A stretch of 64,000 nucleotides of DNA from an uncultured Candidatus Saccharibacteria bacterium (GTDB lineage: Bacteria; Patescibacteriota; Minisyncoccia; Phycocordibacterales; UBA9973): the NCBI GenBank assembly GCA_964553015.1, contig CAZKJE010000002.1:14175-78174 (forward strand), given 5' to 3'. This document shows positions 3,531 to 47,715 of the stretch, one piece after another. The notes under the pieces were generated by a model that did no database searches, was not told where the DNA came from, and saw nothing but the letters and a program-made list of their open reading frames with translations. Each line of letters opens with the position of its first letter. The first letter of the stretch is position 1. The position numbers were made by a program, and so were the translations under genes.

Positions 3531-5057
3531 CTACCGGGCGTATTCCACAATTCTTGTCTCTCGGATCATAGTGACCTTGATTTCTCCCGGATATTTTAGT
3601 TCCTGCTCTATTTTTATAGCTATATCGCGTGCCATTATTTTAGCTTCGGCGTCAGATATCTTTTCCGGAGTTACAAATATGCGGATTTCGCGTCCGGCCT
3701 GCAGAGCATATGATTTTTCAACAGCAGGGAACTGGTTTACCAGAGCTTCGAGCTCCTGCAACCTCTTTAGGTAATTTTCAACAGAGTCTCGACGGGCTCC
3801 CGGACGGCCTCCGGATATCGCGTCTGCGGTCTGCACGATGATGGATTCAATAGTTTCGTATGGATAGTCCTCGTGGTGCGATTTCATTGCAGTCACGATG
3901 CGTTCGTCAGCGCCGAATTTCTGAAGGATACGCATGCCTATCTCCACATGCGTGCCCTGTACTTCGTGGTCGAGCGCTTTTCCGATGTCATGCACCAAGG
4001 CTCCAGCCTTGGCAATCTGTACATCGGCGCCGAGCTCTTCGGCAATCATGCCGGCAATGTGAGACATTTCCGTAGAGTGCTGTAGAACGTTCTGGCCATA
4101 GCTTGTTCGGAAATATAATCGGCCGATAATCGCTACGATGCGCGGATCAAAGTTAAATATTCCGCATTCATACACCGCCTGTTCTCCTTTTTCCTTAATT
4201 ATTTTATTTATATCTTCCTTCGCTTTTTCTACGAGCTCTTCAATTTTTGCCGGCTGAATGCGTCCGTCTAAGATTAGGTTCTCAAGCGCCAAGCGGGCTA
4301 CCTGTCTTCGGATAGGATCGAAACAGGAGATAACAATAGAGCCAGGAGTATCGTCCACGATGAGCTCCACTCCCGCTGCCCGTTCAAATGCGCGGATATT
4401 GCGGCCTTCTTTTCCGATAATTTTTCCTTTAATTTCATTGTTTGGAATAGAAACAACTGTCGTCATGAGTTCGGAAGCTGTACTCGCGGCTAAACGCTGA
4501 ATAGAAGTCGCCAGGATATCTTTTGCGTGCCTATCAAGCTTTTCCTCGTTACTATTTTCCAATTTCTGAATACGAATCATGATGTCTTCTTCATATTTTT
4601 TTTCTACATCTCGAAGAAGTTCTTCTTTGGCTTCGTTTTCTGTCAGCTCTGCGACTCTCTCCAGCTCTATTCTTTTTTCATCTTCTATTTTTAATATTTT
4701 TTCCTGTATTTTTTTAACCTCCTCAACTTTTAGCTTGATCACTTCGGCTTCCTTGTTTACTTCCACCTGCCGCGCGTCCAAGAACTCATCTTTTTTTATG
4801 AGTCTTTTTTCGGTTTCTTTCCATTCATCAGTCTTTCTCTTCTCTTCTTCTTTTAAGTTGCCGACCAGCTCTTCGGATTTTTTCTTGGCTTCATCCGTGA
4901 TCCTTTGCGCTTCTTCTTTCGCGCCGACCATCATCTGTTTTATGTCTATCTCAATAGACCTGCGTTTTCCGAGCGCGACCAAAAGGCGCAGATAGTATCC
5001 GACTATCACGCCCAAAAGGAGCACTCCGACTCCGACTAGAATTATTATTATGCTCAT
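3531..5057 (-). CDS. rny: ribonuclease Y
   Basis: N-terminal TM helix, coiled coil, KH domain (IIGKEGRNIR) and HD domain (HSxEV ... AMKSHHEDY ... DAISGGRPGAR). Confidence 0.9.
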   Translation of the reverse strand: MSIIIILVGVGVLLLGVIVGYYLRLLVALGKRRSIEIDIKQMMVGAKEEAQRITDEAKKKSEELVGNLKEEEKRKTDEWKETEKRLIKKDEFLDARQVEVNKEAEVIKLKVEEVKKIQEKILKIEDEKRIELERVAELTENEAKEELLRDVEKKYEEDIMIRIQKLENSNEEKLDRHAKDILATSIQRLAASTASELMTTVVSIPNNEIKGKIIGKEGRNIRAFERAAGVELIVDDTPGSIVISCFDPIRRQVARLALENLILDGRIQPAKIEELVEKAKEDINKIIKEKGEQAVYECGIFNFDPRIVAIIGRLYFRTSYGQNVLQHSTEMSHIAGMIAEELGADVQIAKAGALVHDIGKALDHEVQGTHVEIGMRILQKFGADERIVTAMKSHHEDYPYETIESIIVQTADAISGGRPGARRDSVENYLKRLQELEALVNQFPAVEKSYALQAGREIRIFVTPEKISDAEAKIMARDIAIKIEQELKYPGEIKVTMIRETRIVEYAR

Positions 5058-5248
5058 AAGCCTGTGTCAGCTTACAAGAACAAACCACTATATTTTAGAT
5101 TTTTCCTGCCTGCATGCCAAAGATTTGCAAACTTTCTCTTATCTTTTCTTTTGAAAACTTCATAATATATGGGATATTCCTGTGAACCAATGTAAAATAA
5201 ATTTTTAAAATTCAACGTACATAGTATAACAGAAAGGATAAAATTAGT

Positions 5249-5854
5249 CTAGTTTTCCTGTTTTGACCCTGGAGTTTTGGATTTGGTGACTATTTCGTCT
5301 ATTATTCCGTACTTCTGCGCCTCTTGCGCATCCATGAAGAAGTCCCTCTCCACGTCTTTTTCAATCTGGGTGAGGGATTTGCCGGTATTTTTTGCCAAAA
5401 GTTTGTTTAAATTATCTCTGGTCTTTAAAATATGCTTTGCCGTGATTGCAATATCGGTGGCTTGGCCTTCCACTCCGCCCAAGGGCTGGTGGATCATGAT
5501 CTCGGCGTTCGGCAAAATATAGCGCTTGCCACGCTTACCGGAAGACATGATGATAGCGGCGCCTGAAGCAGCGAGGCCGACACAGAAGGTAGAAATATCC
5601 GGACGGACATGATTCATGGTGTCCACTATGGCCATAGTAGAAGTCACCGATCCGCCCGGAGAATTTATATAAAGATGAATATCTTTTTTAGCATCTTCGG
5701 ATTCTAGAAATAGAAGCTGGGCGATGACGATATTTGCGGTGTTGTCGTCAATCGGTCCGGCTAAAAAGACTATCCGCTCGCGCAAAAGGCGGGAATATAT
5801 GTCGTAAGCGCGTTCTCCAAATTGCGATTTTTCTATTACTGTTGGTATTAACAT
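5249..5854 (-). CDS. clpP: ATP-dependent Clp protease proteolytic subunit
   Basis: Ser-His-Asp triad context ([17 protein letters not shown]). TATAAT lies 6 nt upstream of the ATG on the minus strand, so the transcript is probably leaderless. Confidence 0.9.
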
Positions 5855-5894
5855 GTAAATATTATATTCTAATTTTTAACTTTTTCAAGCTTGT

Positions 5895-5923
5895 TGACAT
5901 AAACCTACTTTAAGTGTATAATA
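5895..5923 (+). promoter_or_regulatory. consensus sigma70 promoter TTGACA-17-TATAAT
   Basis: TTGACA at 5895-5900, spacer taaacctactttaagtg, TATAAT at 5918-5923. It lies about 40 nt upstream of a strong SD (AAAGGAGGA). Confidence 0.6.
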
Positions 5924-5964
5924 CCAAACGAATAAAAATTGAACCAAAAGGAGGATTCCAATCA

Positions 5965-6144
5965 TGAAGTTTATTTTCTTGCAGAATACATCTGACGGGT
6001 GCAAGCCCATGTGGCTTACGCCCCCGTTTGATGCCCCGTCCGTAGAAAGAGCGGATCAGATCACCAAAGAGCGATACCTCCACGAGGGCGAGCTCTACAA
6101 AAAGGTTGAAAAAACCGAGACGATCGTGAGAGGAATCTGGTAGA
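5965..6144 (+). CDS. small hypothetical protein (59 aa) with strong SD and GC-rich, atypical codon usage
   Basis: Not in the ORF track because it is under 60 aa. AAAGGAGGA sits 7 nt upstream of the ATG. Sequence MKFIFLQNTSDGCKPMWLTPPFDAPSVERADQITKERYLHEGELYKKVEKTETIVRGIW. Terminator hairpin downstream. Confidence 0.45.
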
Positions 6145-6159
6145 GTAGCACAACAACAT

Positions 6160-6215
6160 CGCTCGCTCTGGGCAAGAAGACTCGTCTTCTGCTTCGGGCG
6201 AGTTTTCTTTTTACC
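6160..6215 (+). terminator. intrinsic terminator / possible attenuator upstream of the pyr operon
   Basis: Nested GC stems (GCAAGAAGAC-TCG-TCTTCTGC inside CGCTCGC...GCGAG) followed by TTTTCTTTTT. A second weaker hairpin lies at about 6222-6255. Confidence 0.5.
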
Positions 6216-6275
6216 TCCTTGCCCTGCTTAGCGGGGCTTGCTTCTCTTTTTTAAAGTGCTACTATTTTACCTAAT

Positions 6276-7523
6276 GTGTCTAATGAAATACGTAAAAATA
6301 TGCCAAGAAAAATGATAAGTGTAGAAGGCAACATAGTAAATAAAGATAAAGTTTTCCGCGGAAGAATTGAAATTGATCAGAGCGGAATGATAGATAAAAT
6401 CGGCGAACCGAAAGGTGACGCCGATTTTATTTTTGAGGATGAATTAATTTTTCCCGGATTCATAGATCTGCATGTGCATGCGCGGGAAGATGCAAGCCAC
6501 ACGCAAGATTACAAAGAAGATTTTATCTCCTCGGGAGTTGCGGCGATAAGCGGCGGAGTGACAGCATTTGCAGAAATGCCGAACAATCCAGTACCGCCGA
6601 TTGATGATAAAAGTTACGCAGAAAAAAAAGAATTAACTAAGAAATCTCCAGTTCCAGTTTTACTTTATGCAGGCATCGGCCCTAAGACAAAACCGCTTTC
6701 ATCAAAAGTTCCGTACAAAGTTTTTATGGGTAAATCTGTCGGCGATCTTTTTTTTACAACACTGGAAGAATTAGAATCAGTAATAAAAAATTACAAGGGA
6801 CAATACGTGAGTTTCCACTGCGAGGATCCGGAAATTCTGGAAGAAAAAACTCATGAGTTAACTCATGAGTTACAGCGCCCCAGAGAAGCTGAAATTTCCG
6901 GAATAGATTTCGCGCTCAAATTAATAGAAAAATATAATATTTTTGGAAAAATTTGTCATGTATCTACGATAGGAGGAATACAAAAAATTATTGAAGCAAA
7001 AAAAAGAGGGGTAAATGTAACAGTAGAAGTAACTCCGCATCATTTGTATTTTGCGAAAGCAAATAAAAATTTACAAGTCAATCCGCCCATACGTGATGTA
7101 GAAGATTGTGCGGCTTTAATAAAACTTTTGAAACGAGGCGATATTGATTTTCTTGCTACCGACCATGCTCCGCACACAAAAGAAGAGAAGAAAAAAGGAG
7201 TTTCAGGCATGCCGCATTTAGATACTTACGGACCGTTTATCGCATGGCTTATAAAAGAACACGGTTTTACGCAGGAAGAAATTGCGAGAGTATGCGCATA
7301 TAATCCGGGTGTTTTTTTAAATAGTTTTATGCCTGAGAAATATGGAGAAACAAAAGAAGGCTACGTTGGCTCGCTTACAGTAATAAATATGAACAAGCCA
7401 GTAAGGATAAAAAAAGAAATGCTTAAAACGAAATGCGGCTGGTCGCCTTTTCTGGGGGTGACATTTCCGGGAAGCGTTACTATGACAATAGTAAAAGGAG
7501 AAATTTATGAAAACAGAAAATAG
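6276..7523 (+). CDS. pyrC: dihydroorotase
   Basis: Amidohydrolase motifs DLHVHARE and DHAPH. GTG start preceded by the extended -10-like TGCTACTAT. Confidence 0.85.
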   Translation: MSNEIRKNMPRKMISVEGNIVNKDKVFRGRIEIDQSGMIDKIGEPKGDADFIFEDELIFPGFIDLHVHAREDASHTQDYKEDFISSGVAAISGGVTAFAEMPNNPVPPIDDKSYAEKKELTKKSPVPVLLYAGIGPKTKPLSSKVPYKVFMGKSVGDLFFTTLEELESVIKNYKGQYVSFHCEDPEILEEKTHELTHELQRPREAEISGIDFALKLIEKYNIFGKICHVSTIGGIQKIIEAKKRGVNVTVEVTPHHLYFAKANKNLQVNPPIRDVEDCAALIKLLKRGDIDFLATDHAPHTKEEKKKGVSGMPHLDTYGPFIAWLIKEHGFTQEEIARVCAYNPGVFLNSFMPEKYGETKEGYVGSLTVINMNKPVRIKKEMLKTKCGWSPFLGVTFPGSVTMTIVKGEIYENRK

Positions 7524-39070: not shown

Positions 39071-39145
39071 TTGATATTAGTAGCAAAATAGACTTATGAA
39101 ACTACAAGAAGGATAATAGCGTAACTAAACCATAAAGTCAATTTG

Positions 39146-39535
39146 TGGAGATGGGGGAAATTGAATCCCCGTGCAGAAGGTTTTTGCAAAGAAGTCTACA
39201 TGCGTAGCGCGCTTTTTGTTTTAAATTAAAAAATTATGAAACGCGCCAAATATTTTTTAACCGAGTTCTTTTGTTTTGCGAGAGCGTCAGAACAGGCGTT
39301 CAAGCTATCCCGATAATGTTATGCCTCGTCTTATATATCGGAAGTCTATAAGAGAGACACCACCTCAGGCTTACGCGAAAGATGGAGCGAAAGCGAGCGC
39401 ATTACCGAAGTAAGGCGAACGCATTGCTGTGAAAGCTGATTTTGCAATTAGCTGTTGAACGAATTTTTACGAGATTACGTTCATTCTCGGCATGCATCAA
39501 TAACAAATGGCCAACTGTCTATGCCTTGCATCCCC
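39146..39535 (-). ncRNA. ssrA: transfer-messenger RNA (tmRNA)
   Basis: 5' end GGGGAUGCAAGG...GCAUGCCGAG...CUCGUAAAAA shares the PK1-region strings with E. coli tmRNA. 3' tRNA-like end with T-arm GGGGA-UUCAAUU-UCCCC and acceptor CAUCUCC-A pairing with the 5' GGGGAUG. Lies next to smpB. Predicted tag ORF is GCA AAA ... GCG UAA. Confidence 0.75.
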
Positions 39536-39546
39536 ATATTTACTTT

Positions 39547-39993
39547 TCAACGTCCTTTAAAATCTCGGCGAATCTCGCGATCAGTGTCACGCTTTTTTAG
39601 AGTTTCGCGTTTATCAAATTTTTTCTTGCCTTTCACCAGGGCAATTTCCAATTTGATTTTCCTGCCTTTATTATACACTGAAATCGGCACTATTGTCAAA
39701 CTTTTATTCTTCTCGCTGCCTTGTAGCTCATTAATTTCTTTTTTGGTCAGCAAAAGTTTCCTATTGCGCAGAGGATCATAATCTTTTGGCGCATTTTTTG
39801 CCTGATATGGAGGTATGTTGGCATTGATCAGGTATGCTTCGCCGCCGCGTATAATTACAAAAGCCCCCTCGAGCGACATCTGACCCGTTCGTACAGCTTT
39901 TACTTCTGTTCCCAAAAGCTCAATACCGGTTTCGTGCTTTTCTAGGAATTCATAATTGAATCGCGCTTTGCGGTTTTCTGTATAACTAGCCAT
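39547..39993 (-). CDS. smpB: SsrA-binding protein SmpB
   Basis: 148 aa, typical SmpB sequence (GIELLGTEVK ... ). Confidence 0.9.
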   Translation of the reverse strand: MASYTENRKARFNYEFLEKHETGIELLGTEVKAVRTGQMSLEGAFVIIRGGEAYLINANIPPYQAKNAPKDYDPLRNRKLLLTKKEINELQGSEKNKSLTIVPISVYNKGRKIKLEIALVKGKKKFDKRETLKKRDTDREIRRDFKGR

Positions 39994-40960: not shown

Positions 40961-41250
40961 ATCTCATAGATTTTATTTGATTTAATATGAGGTCAAGAGA
41001 TTGTTTCGTATAGTCTCTTGCATATCCCTAAATCAAATGTAGTTTCTCAAAAACGATTAGCGAATTGAGAGATTTTCGCTAAAAACGCTTGAGAAATGAA
41101 GAGCTGAAATCTCTCTGGGTCTGGAGCGCTCGGGTTACCTTTAGCTCTTTGATCCATCTGTTGGTAAAAACCCGAACATCATCGCCGTCGGTTCGAAACA
41201 ACCCTCGGCACCCCACCCAAAGCTTCGGCCGCGGGTGGGTTTTTATTTTT
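40961..41250 (+). ncRNA. candidate structured ncRNA of unknown class (about 290 nt) with its own promoter and terminator
   Basis: Long imperfect inverted repeat at 40972-41045. Nested stems TTTCTCAA...[GCGAA-TTGAGAGATT-TTCGC]...TTGAGAAA. Terminal GC stem CCCACCC...GGGTGGG followed by TTTTTATTTTT. No ORF with a plausible start. Confidence 0.35.
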
Positions 41251-41301
41251 ATACTGAATTTTTTATTTCACATTTTGGGTTTTTTGTGCTATTATCTCAA
41301 A

Positions 41302-43230
41302 ATGGATTTAAATTTTCTTAACAATAAAACTGGCGACAAAGGGCGAAAGAAACTTCCGAAGCCGACGAAGTTCAGTGGGAATATTTTAGGCGCGATAATT
41401 TTTTTCATGCTCATCACTGCGCTTTACTTGGTGGTAGCAGGAGACCAAAAAACGGTTCCAGAAATTCCAATTTCCGACCTGGCGCAAAGCGTATCTGCGG
41501 GAGAGGTAAAAAATATTTTAGTTTCCGGAGACAAGCTCACCATCACGTACAAAAACGATCAAGTTAAGACATCCAAGAAAGAAGTGGGCTCGGCGCTGTC
41601 GCAGACACTTTTTAATTATGGGGTGCCGCCGGAAGCACTTGCGCAGACAGAAATAGAAATAAAAAACGAAAGTGGATTTGCGTACTGGCTCGTAAATATT
41701 CTGCCGTTTCTTCTGCCGGTAATTTTTATTCTGTTGTTTTTCTGGTATTTATCACGCCAGGTAAAAGGCGCAGGCATGCAGGCGTTTACTTTCGGACAAT
41801 CCAAGGCCCGCATCACAGATCCGAATGATAAAAATAATAAAGTTACTTTCAAAGACGTGGCCGGAGCCAAAGAAGCGAAGGAAGAATTGAAAGAGATTGT
41901 AGACTTTTTGAAAAGTCCGAAAAAATTTCTGGATATTGGCGCAAGGATTCCAAAAGGTGTAATGCTGACAGGAGCCCCGGGTACAGGAAAGACGCTGCTC
42001 GCTCGCGCTGTAGCAGGCGAGGCCTCCGTGCCGTTCTTTCATTTATCCGGCAGCGAATTCGTGGAAATGTTCGTTGGTGTCGGGGCTTCGCGTGTGCGTG
42101 ACCTATTTAAAATGGCTAAAAAAGCTGCACCGGCCATCATATTCGTGGATGAAATAGACGCTATCGGGCGCACGAGAGGGGGAGGCTTTGGCGGCGGGAA
42201 TGATGAACGCGAGCAAACCTTGAACCAGATTTTGGTGGAGATGGACGGCTTTGAACCGAACGATAAAGTGATAGTCATGGCGGCTACAAACAGGCCGGAC
42301 GTCCTCGATCCGGCGCTCATTCGCCCGGGACGTTTTGATAGAAAAGTAATGATAGATCTTCCGGATCGCGCTGACCGCGAAGAAATTTTAAAAATTCACG
42401 CTGTTAAAAAACCTCTCGCCGAAGATATAAATTTGAAATTAATTGCCGAACGTACACCTGGTTTTTCTGGCGCCGACCTGTATTCGCTCATGAACGAAGG
42501 TGCGATACTCGCCGCACGCGAGAACCGCAAGAAAGTTTTTCAATTTGATCTCATACGCGCGATAGAAAAAGTAATGCTCGGTCCTGAGAGGAAGAGCCAT
42601 TTGCTTTCCAAAAAAGAAAAAGAAATTACTGCGTACCATGAAGCGGGTCATGCGATCGTCGCATCAGTTTTACCTCACGCAGATCCCGTTCATAAAGTTT
42701 CTATCATCTCCCGCGGAAACGCCGGAGGATACACTTTGAAGCTTCCGCTTGAAGAAAGGCGATTGCAATCTAAAAAAGAATTTATAGATGACATTGCGAT
42801 GTCGCTCGGAGGATATGTGGCCGAGCAGATGATGTTCGGAGATATCACGACTGGTCCGTCAAGCGATTTGCAGGCAGCAACAAACATTGCGCGCGCCATG
42901 GTGACGCGCTGGGGCATGTCGGACATTATCGGACCGATAGCCTTGAACGATTCTCCCGGCCGTTCTATGTATGGAGGAGAAACAGTAGAAAAAGAATTTT
43001 CCGAAAGTGTTTCTACTAAAGTAGATGCTGAAGTTTCAAGAATAATTAGTGATGGGCTAAAGTCTGCGCAAATCGTAATTACCGAAAACAAAAAAGCCTT
43101 TGAGGCTATAGCACAAAAACTCATAGAAGTTGAAACCATAGAACAGGAGGAATATGAAAAAATTCTCATAGCGCACGGAATTATCTTAAAAAAGAAAGAA
43201 GTCATAGCTCCACCGGAAGGTACAAAGTAA
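41302..43230 (+). CDS. ftsH: ATP-dependent zinc metalloprotease FtsH
   Basis: Start refined to MDLNFLNNK. Two TM helices, AAA+ module (GPPGTGKT) and HEAGH zinc motif. Extended -10 TGCTATTAT lies 6 nt from the ATG. Confidence 0.9.
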
Positions 43231-43323: not shown

Positions 43324-43998
43324 ATGGCGAGAAAACAAGATAAACAAAGCGTTTTGGCTATGCGCAAGAGAGGAATGAGCTACAGCCAGATCAAAGGGAA
43401 AATAAAAATAAGCAAAAGCACTTTGAGTGTCTGGCTTAAAGATTTACCACTCGATGAAAAACGGATAAGAGAATTAAGAGACAATAGCCCTATTCGTATT
43501 GAAAAATTCAGAAATACAATGCGAGCAAAAAAAGAGATGAGACTTTATGAGGTATATAAAAAAGTCGCAAATGATATTTGTGATCTCTCAAAAAGAGATT
43601 TATTTTTAACAGGCTTGTTCTTATATTGGGGAGAAGGCACGAAATCACAAAATTCTTTAGTTGCCCTCACAAATACAAATCCAGCCATGGTTAAGTTTTT
43701 CATACAATGGCTAAAATTGTTTGGAGTAAAAAGCAAAGATTTGAAAATTAAACTACATTTATACTCCGATATGAAAATTAAAGAAAGTCTTGATTTTTGG
43801 TCAAAAGAGCTTAATATTCCGATAAGCCAGTTTTATAAGCCGTATGTTAAGAAAAATACTCTCAAATCTATCTCGTATAAAAATGGCTTTGGAAAAGGAA
43901 CATGTAGTGTTATATTTGGGAGTAGAGATCTTTGGGAATATATAACAATGGGATTGAAATATATTTCTGAAATTAGTAATGAAAATTTCCGCCCCTAG
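43324..43998 (+). CDS. hypothetical protein with N-terminal helix-turn-helix
   Basis: N-terminus RKRGMSYSQIKGKIKISKSTLSVWLK is HTH-like. The C-terminal 150 aa are unassigned. The stop overlaps the tRNA 5' end. Confidence 0.55.
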   Translation: MARKQDKQSVLAMRKRGMSYSQIKGKIKISKSTLSVWLKDLPLDEKRIRELRDNSPIRIEKFRNTMRAKKEMRLYEVYKKVANDICDLSKRDLFLTGLFLYWGEGTKSQNSLVALTNTNPAMVKFFIQWLKLFGVKSKDLKIKLHLYSDMKIKESLDFWSKELNIPISQFYKPYVKKNTLKSISYKNGFGKGTCSVIFGSRDLWEYITMGLKYISEISNENFRP

Positions 43999-44061
43999 CT
44001 CAGTTGGTAGAGCAATCCGCTTATACCGGATCGGTCCTTGGTTCGAGTCCAAGGGGGCGGA
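43989..44061 (+). tRNA. tRNA-Ile with anticodon UAU
   Basis: 73-nt cloverleaf. Acceptor CCGCCCC/GGGGCGG, D-arm GCTC-AGTTGGTA-GAGC, anticodon arm ATCCG-CTTATAC-CGGAT with U33 and A37, variable loop CGGTC, T-arm CTTGG-TTCGAGT-CCAAG, discriminator A. CCA is not encoded. Confidence 0.75.
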
Positions 44062-44063
44062 CA

Positions 44064-44624
44064 ATGAAAGATAATTTGAACGAAAAATTAATTTCTGTTC
44101 CCCAACCACCCGTATTCCATACCTCAAGCCGTTTTTTATACGACGAATGGGTGCGCCTGAGTAAGCGTCTGGAAATAGAAGAGTTAAACGAAGAGGAGCG
44201 TGTTATAATAGAACAAAAGAGATCTGCGCTATTTAAAGAATATGAAGTTGCGTCTAATCGTGAGCAAGCCGAACCCGAAGCCATAGGCTTAGAATTTCTA
44301 GAAAACTTGAAATACGCTATTAAACAGAAAGACAAAGCTTTGTTACGAAAAACAATCCTTATGATTCAAGAGTTTGTTAATCGCCCTAACTTTTATAAAG
44401 ATTTAGATTTTATCAGATTTGCTGATGATGAATTAGATAAGATTTTAAATAATCGAATTGCCGCTATTATTGTCGGATCAGGTACTTATGGTCAAAGAAT
44501 TTTGATTTCTTCCAGCCGCTTGCGCATGAGCGGAGATAGACACGGACAGGAGTATAGAAACCGTTTTGCTAAACTTTTCGGTCTCAAATTCGATCCTAAC
44601 ATTGATTTAAGTATTGAATTTTAA
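44064..44624 (+). CDS. hypothetical protein
   Basis: Start refined to MKDNLNEKL, immediately after the tRNA. No motif recognised. Confidence 0.5.
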   Translation: MKDNLNEKLISVPQPPVFHTSSRFLYDEWVRLSKRLEIEELNEEERVIIEQKRSALFKEYEVASNREQAEPEAIGLEFLENLKYAIKQKDKALLRKTILMIQEFVNRPNFYKDLDFIRFADDELDKILNNRIAAIIVGSGTYGQRILISSSRLRMSGDRHGQEYRNRFAKLFGLKFDPNIDLSIEF

Positions 44625-44829: not shown

Positions 44830-47124
44830 ATGAAACCAACTGCAAAAATTTCAAAAAGCGAATTAGCAAAAATAAAAACTATCCGAAGGAGAACCGGAGA
44901 AGTGGTTCCGTTTGATCTCGACAGGGTAGCCCGCGCTACATTCAAGGCTTTTGAAGTTACCAGAGAGGGGGGAGAAAAGGAATCGGAAAAAGTTGCTACG
45001 AATGTTTTCAAAATGCTGCTTGACCTTCGGGAAGGCCTTTTGAAATCAAACAAGAGCGCAAAATTTCTGCCGACCGTGGAACTTGTGCAGGATTTTGTTG
45101 AAAAAGAATTGATGAAAGACGGGTTTACGGATACCGCGAAAAAATATATTTTATACCGAAACAAGCGTTCAGAGCTTCGCGCTACTTTCGGGCCGGTGTC
45201 AGAAGCAGTCCGCACCGCGGTTGAAGAATCCAGTAAATATTTCGGAAGCGCGTACTCTGAATATATTTTCTATCAATTTTATTCGCGCTGGGTGCCGGAG
45301 CTTGGCCGCCGCGAGACATGGATAGAAACTGTTGATCGCTACATGGCTTACATGAAAGAAAATCTGGCAAATAAACTTACCGCAAAAGAATATTCAGATG
45401 TGAGACAAGCTATCTTAAATCAGGATATTTGTCCTTCCATGAGGCTTCTCTGGTCTGCGGGCAAGGCCTGCAGACAATCGAACGTCTGGGCATACAACTG
45501 TTCCTACATCGCGCCTACGTGTCCGCAAGATCTAGGAGAGATAATGTATGTTTCAATGTGCGGAGCAGGCTTGGGGTTTGCCGTTGAATGGGAAAATGTT
45601 CAGCAGTTTCCGCAAATCCAAAAGCAAACAAATGAAAAGCCGATCACTCACGTAGTTATAGACAGCAAAGAAGGCTGGGCAGATGCTTTTGTTCTCGGGC
45701 TAACATCTTGGTTTGACGGCAAGGATGCAAAATTTGATTATTCGGGGATCAGGCCGGCCGGCGCACGACTGGAAACAGCAGGCGGTAAAGCATCCGGACC
45801 GCAGCCGCTGATGGATCTAATGGAGTTTGCAAAAAGAAAAATTTTAGCAAAACAGGGACGCAGACTTTCAAACATAGACATGCATGACATCATCTGCCAG
45901 ATCGGCATGATCGTCGTAGCCGGCGGAGTTCGCCGAAGCGCCCTCATCTCCTTGTCAGAACTGGAGGACACAGAGATGCGCGACGCAAAGAAGGGACAAT
46001 TTTATCTGACCGAAGGTCAGCGCAGCATGGCAAACAATTCTGCGGTGTACAACGCAAAGCCGGGAGCAGAAGAATTTCTTGATGAATGGACTTCTCTTGT
46101 AAAATCAAAATCCGGCGAACGCGGAATTTTCAATCGCGCGGGGCTGGAAAAACAAGTGCCGGCTCGCAGATGGGCAGCGATCAAAAATGAAAGACAGATG
46201 GGATTAAATCCTTGCGGAGAAATTTATCTTCGTTCAAAACAATTTTGTAATTTGACCAGCATTGTAATCCGTCCGAAGGACACCGCGGAAACTCTGAAGA
46301 GAAAAATGGAGCTGGCGACACTTCTCGGAACGTATCAGTCCACCCTTACCAATTTCGGATATCTTTCAAAGAAGTGGAAAGAGAACTGCGAAGAAGAAAG
46401 ATTGCTCGGCGTATCGCTCACTGGCTACTATGACAATCCTCTTATACGAACCGATAAAGTTTTGGATATGTTAAAAAAGGATTCAGTAGAAACAAATAAA
46501 AAATATGCAAAACGCTTTGGCATAAATCCTTCTACGGCTATCACCTGCGTAAAACCTCATGGAAATTCCGGGCAGCTCCTCGGCGTCGGCTCCGGCATGC
46601 ACCCTTGGTTTGCTCCTTATTTCATCCGCCGTGTGCGCATTTCTCACACTGATACTCTTTTAAAGATGGCCCGAGATCAGGGAGTGCCATGTGTCCCAGA
46701 AGTAGGACAGGCAGAAGGAAGCGCCACTACGTATGTACTCGAATTTCCAGTCAAGGCGCCGCAGGGAGCAATATTCAAAGATGAAGTTTCCGCTCTTGAT
46801 CTCATGAAAGAATGGAAGAGGCTAAAAGAGCATTTTGTGGAGCACAATCCTTCGGCTACCATATATGTCGGCCCTGACGAATGGATCGCCGTAGGAAACT
46901 TTGTCTACGAAAATTGGGACTGGATCGGCGGACTTTCCTTTCTTCCTCGCTCGGAACACGTGTATCAGCTCGCTCCATACGAGCCCATAACAAAAGAACA
47001 GTACGAACGCCGCACAAGGGCAATCGGCAAGATTGACTTCTCAAAACTTTCTCAATATGAGGCGCAGGATAATACTACCGGCGCCAAAGAATTCGCGTGC
47101 GTTTCAGGCGTCTGTGAAATATAA
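44830..47124 (+). CDS. nrdJ: class II (adenosylcobalamin-dependent) ribonucleotide reductase, NrdJ-like, with N-terminal ATP-cone
   Basis: ATP-cone (KTIRRRTGEVVPFD). Active-site NPCGEI and Cys-containing loop FCNLTS. C-terminal CVSGVCEI cysteine pair. Confidence 0.7.
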   Translation: MKPTAKISKSELAKIKTIRRRTGEVVPFDLDRVARATFKAFEVTREGGEKESEKVATNVFKMLLDLREGLLKSNKSAKFLPTVELVQDFVEKELMKDGFTDTAKKYILYRNKRSELRATFGPVSEAVRTAVEESSKYFGSAYSEYIFYQFYSRWVPELGRRETWIETVDRYMAYMKENLANKLTAKEYSDVRQAILNQDICPSMRLLWSAGKACRQSNVWAYNCSYIAPTCPQDLGEIMYVSMCGAGLGFAVEWENVQQFPQIQKQTNEKPITHVVIDSKEGWADAFVLGLTSWFDGKDAKFDYSGIRPAGARLETAGGKASGPQPLMDLMEFAKRKILAKQGRRLSNIDMHDIICQIGMIVVAGGVRRSALISLSELEDTEMRDAKKGQFYLTEGQRSMANNSAVYNAKPGAEEFLDEWTSLVKSKSGERGIFNRAGLEKQVPARRWAAIKNERQMGLNPCGEIYLRSKQFCNLTSIVIRPKDTAETLKRKMELATLLGTYQSTLTNFGYLSKKWKENCEEERLLGVSLTGYYDNPLIRTDKVLDMLKKDSVETNKKYAKRFGINPSTAITCVKPHGNSGQLLGVGSGMHPWFAPYFIRRVRISHTDTLLKMARDQGVPCVPEVGQAEGSATTYVLEFPVKAPQGAIFKDEVSALDLMKEWKRLKEHFVEHNPSATIYVGPDEWIAVGNFVYENWDWIGGLSFLPRSEHVYQLAPYEPITKEQYERRTRAIGKIDFSKLSQYEAQDNTTGAKEFACVSGVCEI

Positions 47125-47157: not shown

Positions 47158-47715
47158 ATGCTTTATACCAGAAAAGGGGATGGAGGCACGACCAAGACTT
47201 TTGGATGCGATCAGCGCATTTCAAAAAGCTCTTTGGTGGCGGAAGCACTCGGTTCGCTGGATGAGACTAATTCTTTTTTAGGCATTGCGCGAGCTAAAAC
47301 TGAAGGCTTGAGTTTTAAAGTTGGAACAGGGGAAATAAAATTTTCAGAACTGATTTTAGAAACCCAGCAGAATTTATTTATCGTGCAGGCAGAAGTCGCA
47401 GGTTCTACTCTTTTCATCACGCAGGATAAAATAACTCGAGTTGAAAATATAGTTGATGAAATAGAAAAAGTTCTACCGCCGATTAAAAGTTTCTTCATCA
47501 GCGGGGCGACAGAGCTAGGTGGAATTTTTGATTTCGCGCGAACGCTTTCAAGGCGGGCGGAGAGGAGAGTAGTCGCCGCCAAAGAAGAAGGTAAAATAAC
47601 TGTGAGCGCAGAAACAATGTCTTATTTAAACAGACTTTCAAGTTTACTGTATGCTCTAGCAAGAATCTCAAGCCACATTGAGGGCGTAGAAGAAGTAAAA
47701 CCAGAATATAAATAA
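47158..47715 (+). CDS. ATP:cob(I)alamin adenosyltransferase, PduO type
   Basis: N-terminal YTRKGDGGTTK, matching the PduO/MMAB motif. 185 aa. Confidence 0.8.
   Translation: MLYTRKGDGGTTKTFGCDQRISKSSLVAEALGSLDETNSFLGIARAKTEGLSFKVGTGEIKFSELILETQQNLFIVQAEVAGSTLFITQDKITRVENIVDEIEKVLPPIKSFFISGATELGGIFDFARTLSRRAERRVVAAKEEGKITVSAETMSYLNRLSSLLYALARISSHIEGVEEVKPEYK

Follow-up and report, generated by a model that had tools for sequence, protein, structure and literature searches.

How can a bacterium read the isoleucine codon AUA with a wobble U and leave the methionine codon AUG alone? This question is raised by a tRNA-Ile gene at positions 43989-44061 (+) of a 64-kb stretch of DNA from contig CAZKJE010000002.1 (the whole stretch is called the window here), in which the anticodon UAU is written in the genome. 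AUA/AUG is the one site of the bacterial code where a wobble U had been considered too risky, and for this reason TilS, which makes the lysidine-modified tRNA-Ile2(CAU), is essential and nearly universal. On its sequence, the source of the window is a Nomurabacteria-like member of the Paceibacteria, part of the Candidate Phyla Radiation (CPR/Patescibacteria); the serine hydroxymethyltransferase (SHMT) encoded in the window shares a 90%-identity cluster with proteins of Candidatus Nomurabacteria. Our analysis makes it likely that the gene encodes a functional tRNA-Ile(UAU) that serves as the dedicated, and probably the sole, AUA decoder, and that relatives throughout a large clade share this arrangement.

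The gene is 73 nt long, from C1 to the discriminator A73, and was supported by ARAGORN, Rfam, the minimum free energy (MFE) fold and covariation. ARAGORN called a tRNA-Ile with the anticodon tat at 43989-44062 (+), the sole tRNA called in the window, in agreement with the anticodon and identity proposed in the first-pass annotation of this DNA. The Rfam model RF00005 (gathering score 29) matched 43989-44061 over its full length with 65.7 bits (E 4.7e-12) and with every stem pair canonical, and the MFE structure of the 73 nt was a cloverleaf (-30.4 kcal/mol, z = -2.4), so that the canonical cloverleaf seen at first pass was borne out. Written arm by arm, the tRNA reads CCGCCCC-UA-GCUC-AGUUGGUA-GAGC-A-AUCCG-CUUAUAC-CGGAU-CGGUC-CUUGG-UUCGAGU-CCAAG-GGGGCGG-A. 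Direct reading of 44020-44026 (+) confirmed the anticodon loop described earlier, C32-U33-U34-A35-U36-A37-C38 (C44020, U44021, U44022, A44023, U44024, A44025 and C44026), with the anticodon at 44022-44024; its A37 would be compatible with N6-threonylcarbamoyladenosine (t6A). C1-G72 forms the first pair, and A44061 serves as the discriminator. The gene does not encode CCA, and promoter-like matches were no commoner than in shuffled sequence, giving no sign of a promoter of its own.

Relatives of the locus were collected with two probes. The protein of the open reading frame (ORF) abutting the tRNA led to seven species-representative metagenome-assembled genomes (MAGs) at 51-72% protein identity, and FtsH, encoded at 41089-43230 (+) in the window (Pfam Peptidase_M41, AAA and FtsH_ext), led to 80 further loci on metagenome contigs at 64-90% FtsH identity. 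tRNA-Ile(tat) was found at the equivalent place in 7/7 MAG loci and 63/80 metagenome loci, and overall it lay downstream of ftsH in 70 of the 88 loci, at a median distance of 518 nt, on the same strand in 59 and inverted in 11; in the window the distance is 760 nt. In 17 of the 18 loci that lack it, the available sequence runs no more than 1316 nt past ftsH. The one true exception is L087 (ftsH at 5032-6978), where 3770 nt past ftsH hold no tRNA-Ile(UAU), perhaps through relocation or loss of the gene. The anticodon was TAT in all 70 orthologues, which come from independent assemblies, and no CAU tRNA occurred at this ftsH-linked position across the 88 loci.

The same relatives showed that the tRNA is maintained as a structure. 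In an alignment of eight sequences, 99.3% of cells were paired and 12 of 21 pairs had compensatory (two-sided) changes; none of 500 shuffles reached these values and no slid register came close. A larger comparison used 59 distinct tRNA-Ile(UAU) sequences. Here the loop CTTATAC and the discriminator A73, which had been noted as compatible with isoleucine identity, were invariant (59/59 each), and all 12 scored acceptor and T-stem pairs were kept in every copy. Stem positions varied through compensatory changes, the D-arm was nearly invariant, C4-G69 was present in 52/59, U12-A23 was largely kept, and the first pair was C1-G72 in the majority (42/59) and G1-C72 in 16. CCA was encoded in just four of the 59. 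The pair C29-G41, invariant in the first eight sequences, was considered as an E. coli-type isoleucine identity element and was dropped when it proved not to be conserved in the 59. These data show that tRNA-Ile(UAU) is a real tRNA under purifying selection, with compensatory stem changes. Its linkage to ftsH is conserved throughout a large CPR clade, and the gene is no isolated oddity.

We then consider how much work this tRNA would have to do. In 35 confidently identified window genes (15,906 codons) we counted 505 ATA, 499 ATT, 260 ATC and 340 ATG codons. AUA is the most-used isoleucine codon (40% of isoleucine, 31.7 per 1000) and is commoner than AUG. The first-pass annotation had spoken of an AT-rich genome that uses many AUA codons; the codon count upholds the second part, AUA use being very high, whereas the genome is only moderately AT-rich, the window (bacterial and chromosomal) having a GC content of 0.37-0.47, about 0.41.

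The presumed charging enzyme is an isoleucyl-tRNA synthetase (IleRS) encoded 13 kb downstream of the tRNA gene, at 56948-60448 (+). It passed the ileS equivalog model TIGR00392 with 868.9 bits (cut-off 621.4), and the next-best models were the mupirocin-resistant enzymes MupA (751.5 bits) and MupB (737 bits). No type-1 Zn-binding C-terminal domain was detected in it with Pfam, TIGR models or motifs. Since its next-best matches are MupA and MupB and its C-terminus is a DUF5915 domain, the enzyme is assigned to type 2, the eukaryote-like type. A complete histidine-phosphatase domain (PGM-like, PF00300) is nested at about aa 520-690, flanked by a pair of Cys on either side (CEAC...CSC); it retains the catalytic RHG (aa 527-529) and, further along, an SHG. 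This phosphatase-bearing architecture was found in more than 100 protein clusters from Paceibacterota, Nomurabacteria, Minisyncoccia and Nealsonbacteria, and the homologues of the window IleRS carry the names Nomurabacteria, Paceibacterota, Pacebacteria or Minisyncoccia. Some of the clustered enzymes also have an HD domain (e.g. P0014, P0042 and P0090), the phosphatase insert is missing from at least one close relative (P0036), and annotation pipelines wrongly call these proteins 'GpmB' or 'class I tRNA ligase family protein'.

The N-terminus of the enzyme drew attention as well. At about aa 46-62, DGPVTANSKPVLHTML, it has V-L-H-T at what we take to be the place of the expected H-I-G-H, from a by-eye alignment to the E. 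coli IleRS. The class I HIGH signature of the window IleRS thus appears non-canonical. Hyper-resistance to mupirocin has been connected with non-canonical variants of HIGH in IleRS2 (bioRxiv 10.64898/2026.02.03.703510).

By analogy with known systems, we propose that the type-2 IleRS would charge tRNA-Ile(UAU), accepting U34, and that U34 would pair with the A of AUA. AUG would be largely avoided, as an unmodified or minimally modified U34 is expected to bind G-ending codons weakly, given a suitable tRNA and ribosome context. Both C32 and C38 are absolutely invariant, and A38 is found in the remaining tRNAs of these loci; the C32/C38 loop context, together with the ribosome, may help to tune the reading of U34. 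With tRNA-Ile(UAU) in place, TilS and tRNA-Ile2(CAU) could have become dispensable.

No TilS or other PP-loop protein was found among the ORFs of the window. Since tilS and ftsH are classical neighbours (as tilS-hpt-ftsH in Bacillus and numerous others), the neighbourhoods of ftsH were a reasonable place to search further. From the 88 ftsH loci, 1.11 Mb in total, we took all stop-to-stop ORFs that reached 120 aa, 1475 altogether. A phmmer search with E. coli TilS had no match among them at E <= 10, and none of them contained a genuine SGGxDS PP-loop motif; the sole match to the pattern SGGxDS/T, in a 1196-aa ORF of L045, was out of context in an irrelevant protein. An ftsH-linked tilS is excluded in these related loci. 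Records of named relatives were uninformative. About 600 of the 1305 coding-sequence rows (~46%) of Minisyncoccus archaeiphilus had no entry for K04075, PF01171 or 'lysidine', and these rows do not include ftsH. The label 'lysidine synthase' on PMX_810 was rejected, as its best match is an N-acetyl-sugar amidotransferase and it has neither K04075 nor PF01171; this comes from an incomplete MAG, again without ftsH.

Among the alternatives, the one that survives best is that tRNA-Ile(UAU) is a redundant decoder: tilS and tRNA-Ile2(CAU) would be kept elsewhere, and a lysidine-modified (LAU) tRNA and the UAU tRNA would both read AUA. We consider this unlikely, though it has to be taken seriously, and several points weigh in its favor and against a sole UAU decoder. 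The 1.11 Mb comes to about 12 kb for each genome, taken from around ftsH and small beside the whole, and tilS and tRNA-Ile2(CAU) may lie elsewhere. Double systems, seen as a transitional state, exist in Lactobacillus casei, L. plantarum, Cyanothece and Ferrimonas (PMC3575796), and TilS was present in 98.18% of the bacteria in a survey of 2018-era genomes, where it was described as evolutionarily stable (PMC6063277). A type-2 IleRS is also found in many tilS-positive bacteria, so this enzyme permits TilS-less reading and is not diagnostic of it, and the role of the 32/38 pair as a candidate tuning element is speculation. Finally, two related loci, L068 (20044-20115) and L084 (2439-2512), each hold a CAU tRNA of a shared compact type, and the choice between Met and Ile2 bears directly on the redundant decoder. 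They are 72 nt long, with a 4-nt variable loop, a 7-nt D loop, an apparent A31-G39 mismatch and A73. Their backbone is unlike that of tRNA-Ile(UAU) (G1-C72, other D and T arms, and A38) and is not initiator-like, suggesting that they are probably elongator tRNA-Met, a judgement made on the backbone and not a formal classification against tRNA-Ile2.

What speaks against a redundant decoder is that tilS was absent from the window and from the 1.11 Mb that include its classical place beside ftsH, that AUA is the top isoleucine codon, and that the UAU tRNA has been retained in 70 of 71 informative loci, at FtsH identities of 64-90%, in extremely reduced genomes. A redundant pair of decoders would be unlikely to persist in CPR genomes, given their extreme reduction. 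Because the UAU tRNA is universally retained, AUA is heavily used and the genomes are so reduced, we infer that the lineage has dispensed with TilS and tRNA-Ile2(CAU), a loss that we favor with some reserve. A broader proposal strikes us as evenly balanced between right and wrong: that a class-level CPR radiation (Paceibacteria = Minisyncoccia, including Nomurabacteria) has abandoned TilS and lysidine and decodes its top isoleucine codon by a tRNA-Ile(UAU) fixed beside ftsH, with invariant C32/C38 and with C1-G72, charged by a type-2 IleRS with an acquired, apparently active phosphatase domain.

A different possibility is that AUA does not mean isoleucine in this organism, or that the tRNA is charged with another amino acid. 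There is precedent for such a reading, since a UAU-type anticodon reads AUA as methionine in some mitochondrial codes and some CPR lineages alter the genetic code. CarA, CarB, NusA and FtsH were each aligned with the orthologue from E. coli, which gave 71 ATA positions for comparison. These faced isoleucine 24 times, valine 17, leucine 11 and methionine 4 times in E. coli; ATT positions faced isoleucine 22, leucine 19 and valine 14 times, and the ATC profile was alike. ATG positions faced methionine in 11 of 40 cases, a profile that differs from that of ATA. Because the ATA profile in these four conserved proteins is indistinguishable from those of ATT and ATC and unlike that of ATG, AUA is, as judged from the alignments, isoleucine in this organism. 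The invariant A73, C4-G69 in 52/59 and the largely kept U12-A23 argue against charging with another amino acid, and we regard reassignment of either kind as very improbable.

The neighborhood of the gene bears on whether it belongs to core translation at all. It could instead be an accessory tRNA acquired with a phage or a genomic island, such as one inserted close to the tmRNA gene 4.5 kb away; integration at tmRNA and tRNA genes is common, and the ORFs flanking the tRNA, at 43324-43998 (+) and 44064-44624 (+), are without a confident family. The first of these, of 224 aa and with weak matches to the helix-turn-helix families HTH_23 and HTH_28, lies between ftsH and the tRNA, and its TAG stop at 43996-43998 falls inside the first 10 nt of the tRNA. 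The overlap with the stop of the upstream ORF, reported at first pass, is thus true of the window; it is not conserved, as the corresponding ORF in L002 stops 6 nt before the tRNA. Not all of the clade has this ORF between ftsH and the tRNA: the tRNA lies within 150 nt of the ftsH end in 24 related loci, and the ORF is therefore absent there. The description of the gene as wedged between two hypothetical ORFs holds insofar as both lack a family, and misses that ftsH is close upstream and that the linkage is clade-wide. This linkage, the position of the tRNA between core genes (ftsH and a class II ribonucleotide reductase), the lack of an integrase or phage gene nearby and a tmRNA 3' end that faces away from the tRNA leave an island origin hardly plausible. 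Least credible are a pseudogene, a cloverleaf arisen by chance, and a tRNA-Ile2(CAU) or tRNA-Met gene altered by a sequencing error or by a recent C34-to-U point mutation: TAT is indeed one base from CAT, and the first-pass annotation had itself allowed for a pseudogene, but TAT in 70/70 orthologues of independent assemblies, the strong covariation and the Rfam score argue for a functional gene, and conservation and covariation together rule these readings out.

How does the case compare with known AUA-decoding systems? Bacterial tRNA-Ile(UAU) is known but rare, with nine tilS-less species in three clades (PMC3575796) and TAT tRNA-Ile genes in 19 species (PMC4013482), and these counts, with the near-ubiquity of TilS cited above (PMC6063277), support the rarity asserted at first pass. 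Taniguchi et al. 2013 (PMC3575796) described two routes by which UAU is recognized in tilS-less bacteria. The first, in Mycoplasma mobile, is an Arg substitution in the Zn-binding domain of a type-1 IleRS. The second, in Bifidobacterium and Neorickettsia, is a eukaryote-type IleRS together with tRNA-Ile(TAT); the eukaryotic IleRS charges a tRNA-Ile with the anticodon pseudouridine-A-pseudouridine, and the same was proposed for these two genera (PMC3575796). Judged by domain content, the present case fits the second route, having a eukaryote-type IleRS, and fails the defining feature of the first.

The likeness to Bifidobacterium and Neorickettsia lies in an encoded TAT anticodon, a type-2 IleRS in place of the Zn-binding type, and reduced or host-associated lifestyles. 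The differences are that the absence of tilS is documented there and inferred here, that those cases comprise few species whereas the clade here spans at least 64-90% FtsH identity, and that the IleRS here adds a nested histidine-phosphatase domain. With M. mobile the case shares a UAU tRNA that decodes AUA in a reduced genome. Experiments on M. mobile have proven that the unmodified U34 of its tRNA-Ile2(UAU) can read AUA without reading AUG on the ribosomes of that species (PMC3575796). In that species, however, Arg865 of a type-1 IleRS (W905 in E. coli), in the Zn-binding domain, gives UAU recognition, and this domain is absent here; the window enzyme, with DUF5915 and MupA/B likeness, is not an M. 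mobile-type IleRS (type 1 with Arg or Lys at the W905 equivalent). Moreover, M. mobile is a single species in a tilS-positive group.

Like the canonical tRNA-Ile2(CAU) of the TilS system, the tRNA described here is a minor tRNA-Ile for AUA with A73 and a similar overall backbone. In contrast to it, the anticodon is UAU in the window and in 69 other orthologues, no modification of C34 is needed, and AUA, a rare codon in the canonical system, is a major one. Eukaryotic cytoplasmic tRNA-Ile(UAU) is likewise a UAU-encoded AUA decoder served by a type-2 IleRS; there an intron directs pseudouridylation of U34 and U36, whereas the gene here is intronless, and we know of no such intron-directed machinery in bacteria. 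A further parallel is the tilS-deletion suppressor of B. subtilis, a cell that lives on a UAU tRNA with unmodified U34 and with little misreading of AUG: its tRNA-Ile1(UAU) binds AUA >>> AUU > AUG, with a misincorporation of ~10^-3, and the same paper stresses that anticodon-loop context alters U34 reading (PMC3919564). That tRNA arose in the laboratory, through a G34-to-U change in the major tRNA-Ile1, whereas here a dedicated gene is naturally fixed across the lineage. In the literature searched, we found no paper tying lysidine, tilS or AUA decoding to CPR, Patescibacteria or Parcubacteria. Taken together, this clade-wide syntenic trait, and not a species-level exception, is an unusually broad and apparently unreported case of a known TilS-independent way of AUA decoding.

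The linkage of ftsH and tRNA-Ile(UAU) can be used as a synteny marker for the clade. Natural exceptions to TilS known so far amount to a handful of species. If TilS has indeed been lost, the clade would be, by a wide margin, the largest natural lineage of bacteria without TilS, the picture of TilS as 'evolutionarily stable' would need revision, and adjustments would be due in annotation pipelines, and in completeness estimates from marker genes, wherever these count on TilS in CPR genomes. It would also provide a natural system for A/G discrimination by U34 in a split codon box, with dozens of naturally varied tRNA/IleRS pairs for studying how U34 avoids G; the candidate determinants would be the invariant C32/C38, the type-2 IleRS and the ribosome.

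Another tRNA of the related loci deserves mention. A conserved class II tRNA-Ser with the anticodon ACU (A34; loop U-U-ACU-A-A) lies beside tRNA-Ser(GCU) in seven of them: L002 (15547-15633), L014 (20743-20832), L035 (14858-14945), L036 (8206-8293), L049 (7009-7097), L065 (17951-18038) and L083 (15107-15196). Its anticodon stem shows compensatory changes between loci. To our knowledge, anticodons starting with A, other than that of tRNA-Arg(ACG), are very rare in bacteria; here A34 would have to read AGY and leave AGR alone.

The window also encodes RNase Y, CarA/CarB, aspartate carbamoyltransferase, trigger factor, an H+-pyrophosphatase, NusA, PilB/PilC, TIM, PGK, RecJ, ComEC, SHMT, L20, IF3, SmpB, tmRNA, RecG, Tmk and ArgRS, in addition to FtsH, IleRS and the class II ribonucleotide reductase. 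The last of these, an adenosylcobalamin-dependent enzyme with an N-terminal ATP-cone, is encoded at 44830-47124 (+), and a cobalamin adenosyltransferase gene adjoins it at 47158-47715 (+). As predicted genes, this pair implies a dependence on B12 in a lineage known for minimal biosynthesis. The tmRNA gene, at 39143-39535 (-), matched Rfam with 119.6 bits and lies directly downstream of smpB (39547-39993, -). It was not called by ARAGORN in the window, though it was called in orthologous related loci. Its tag, read by eye from the Rfam alignment, is AKSAFTAMRSPYFGNALAFAPSFA*, which fits the family pattern of the relatives.

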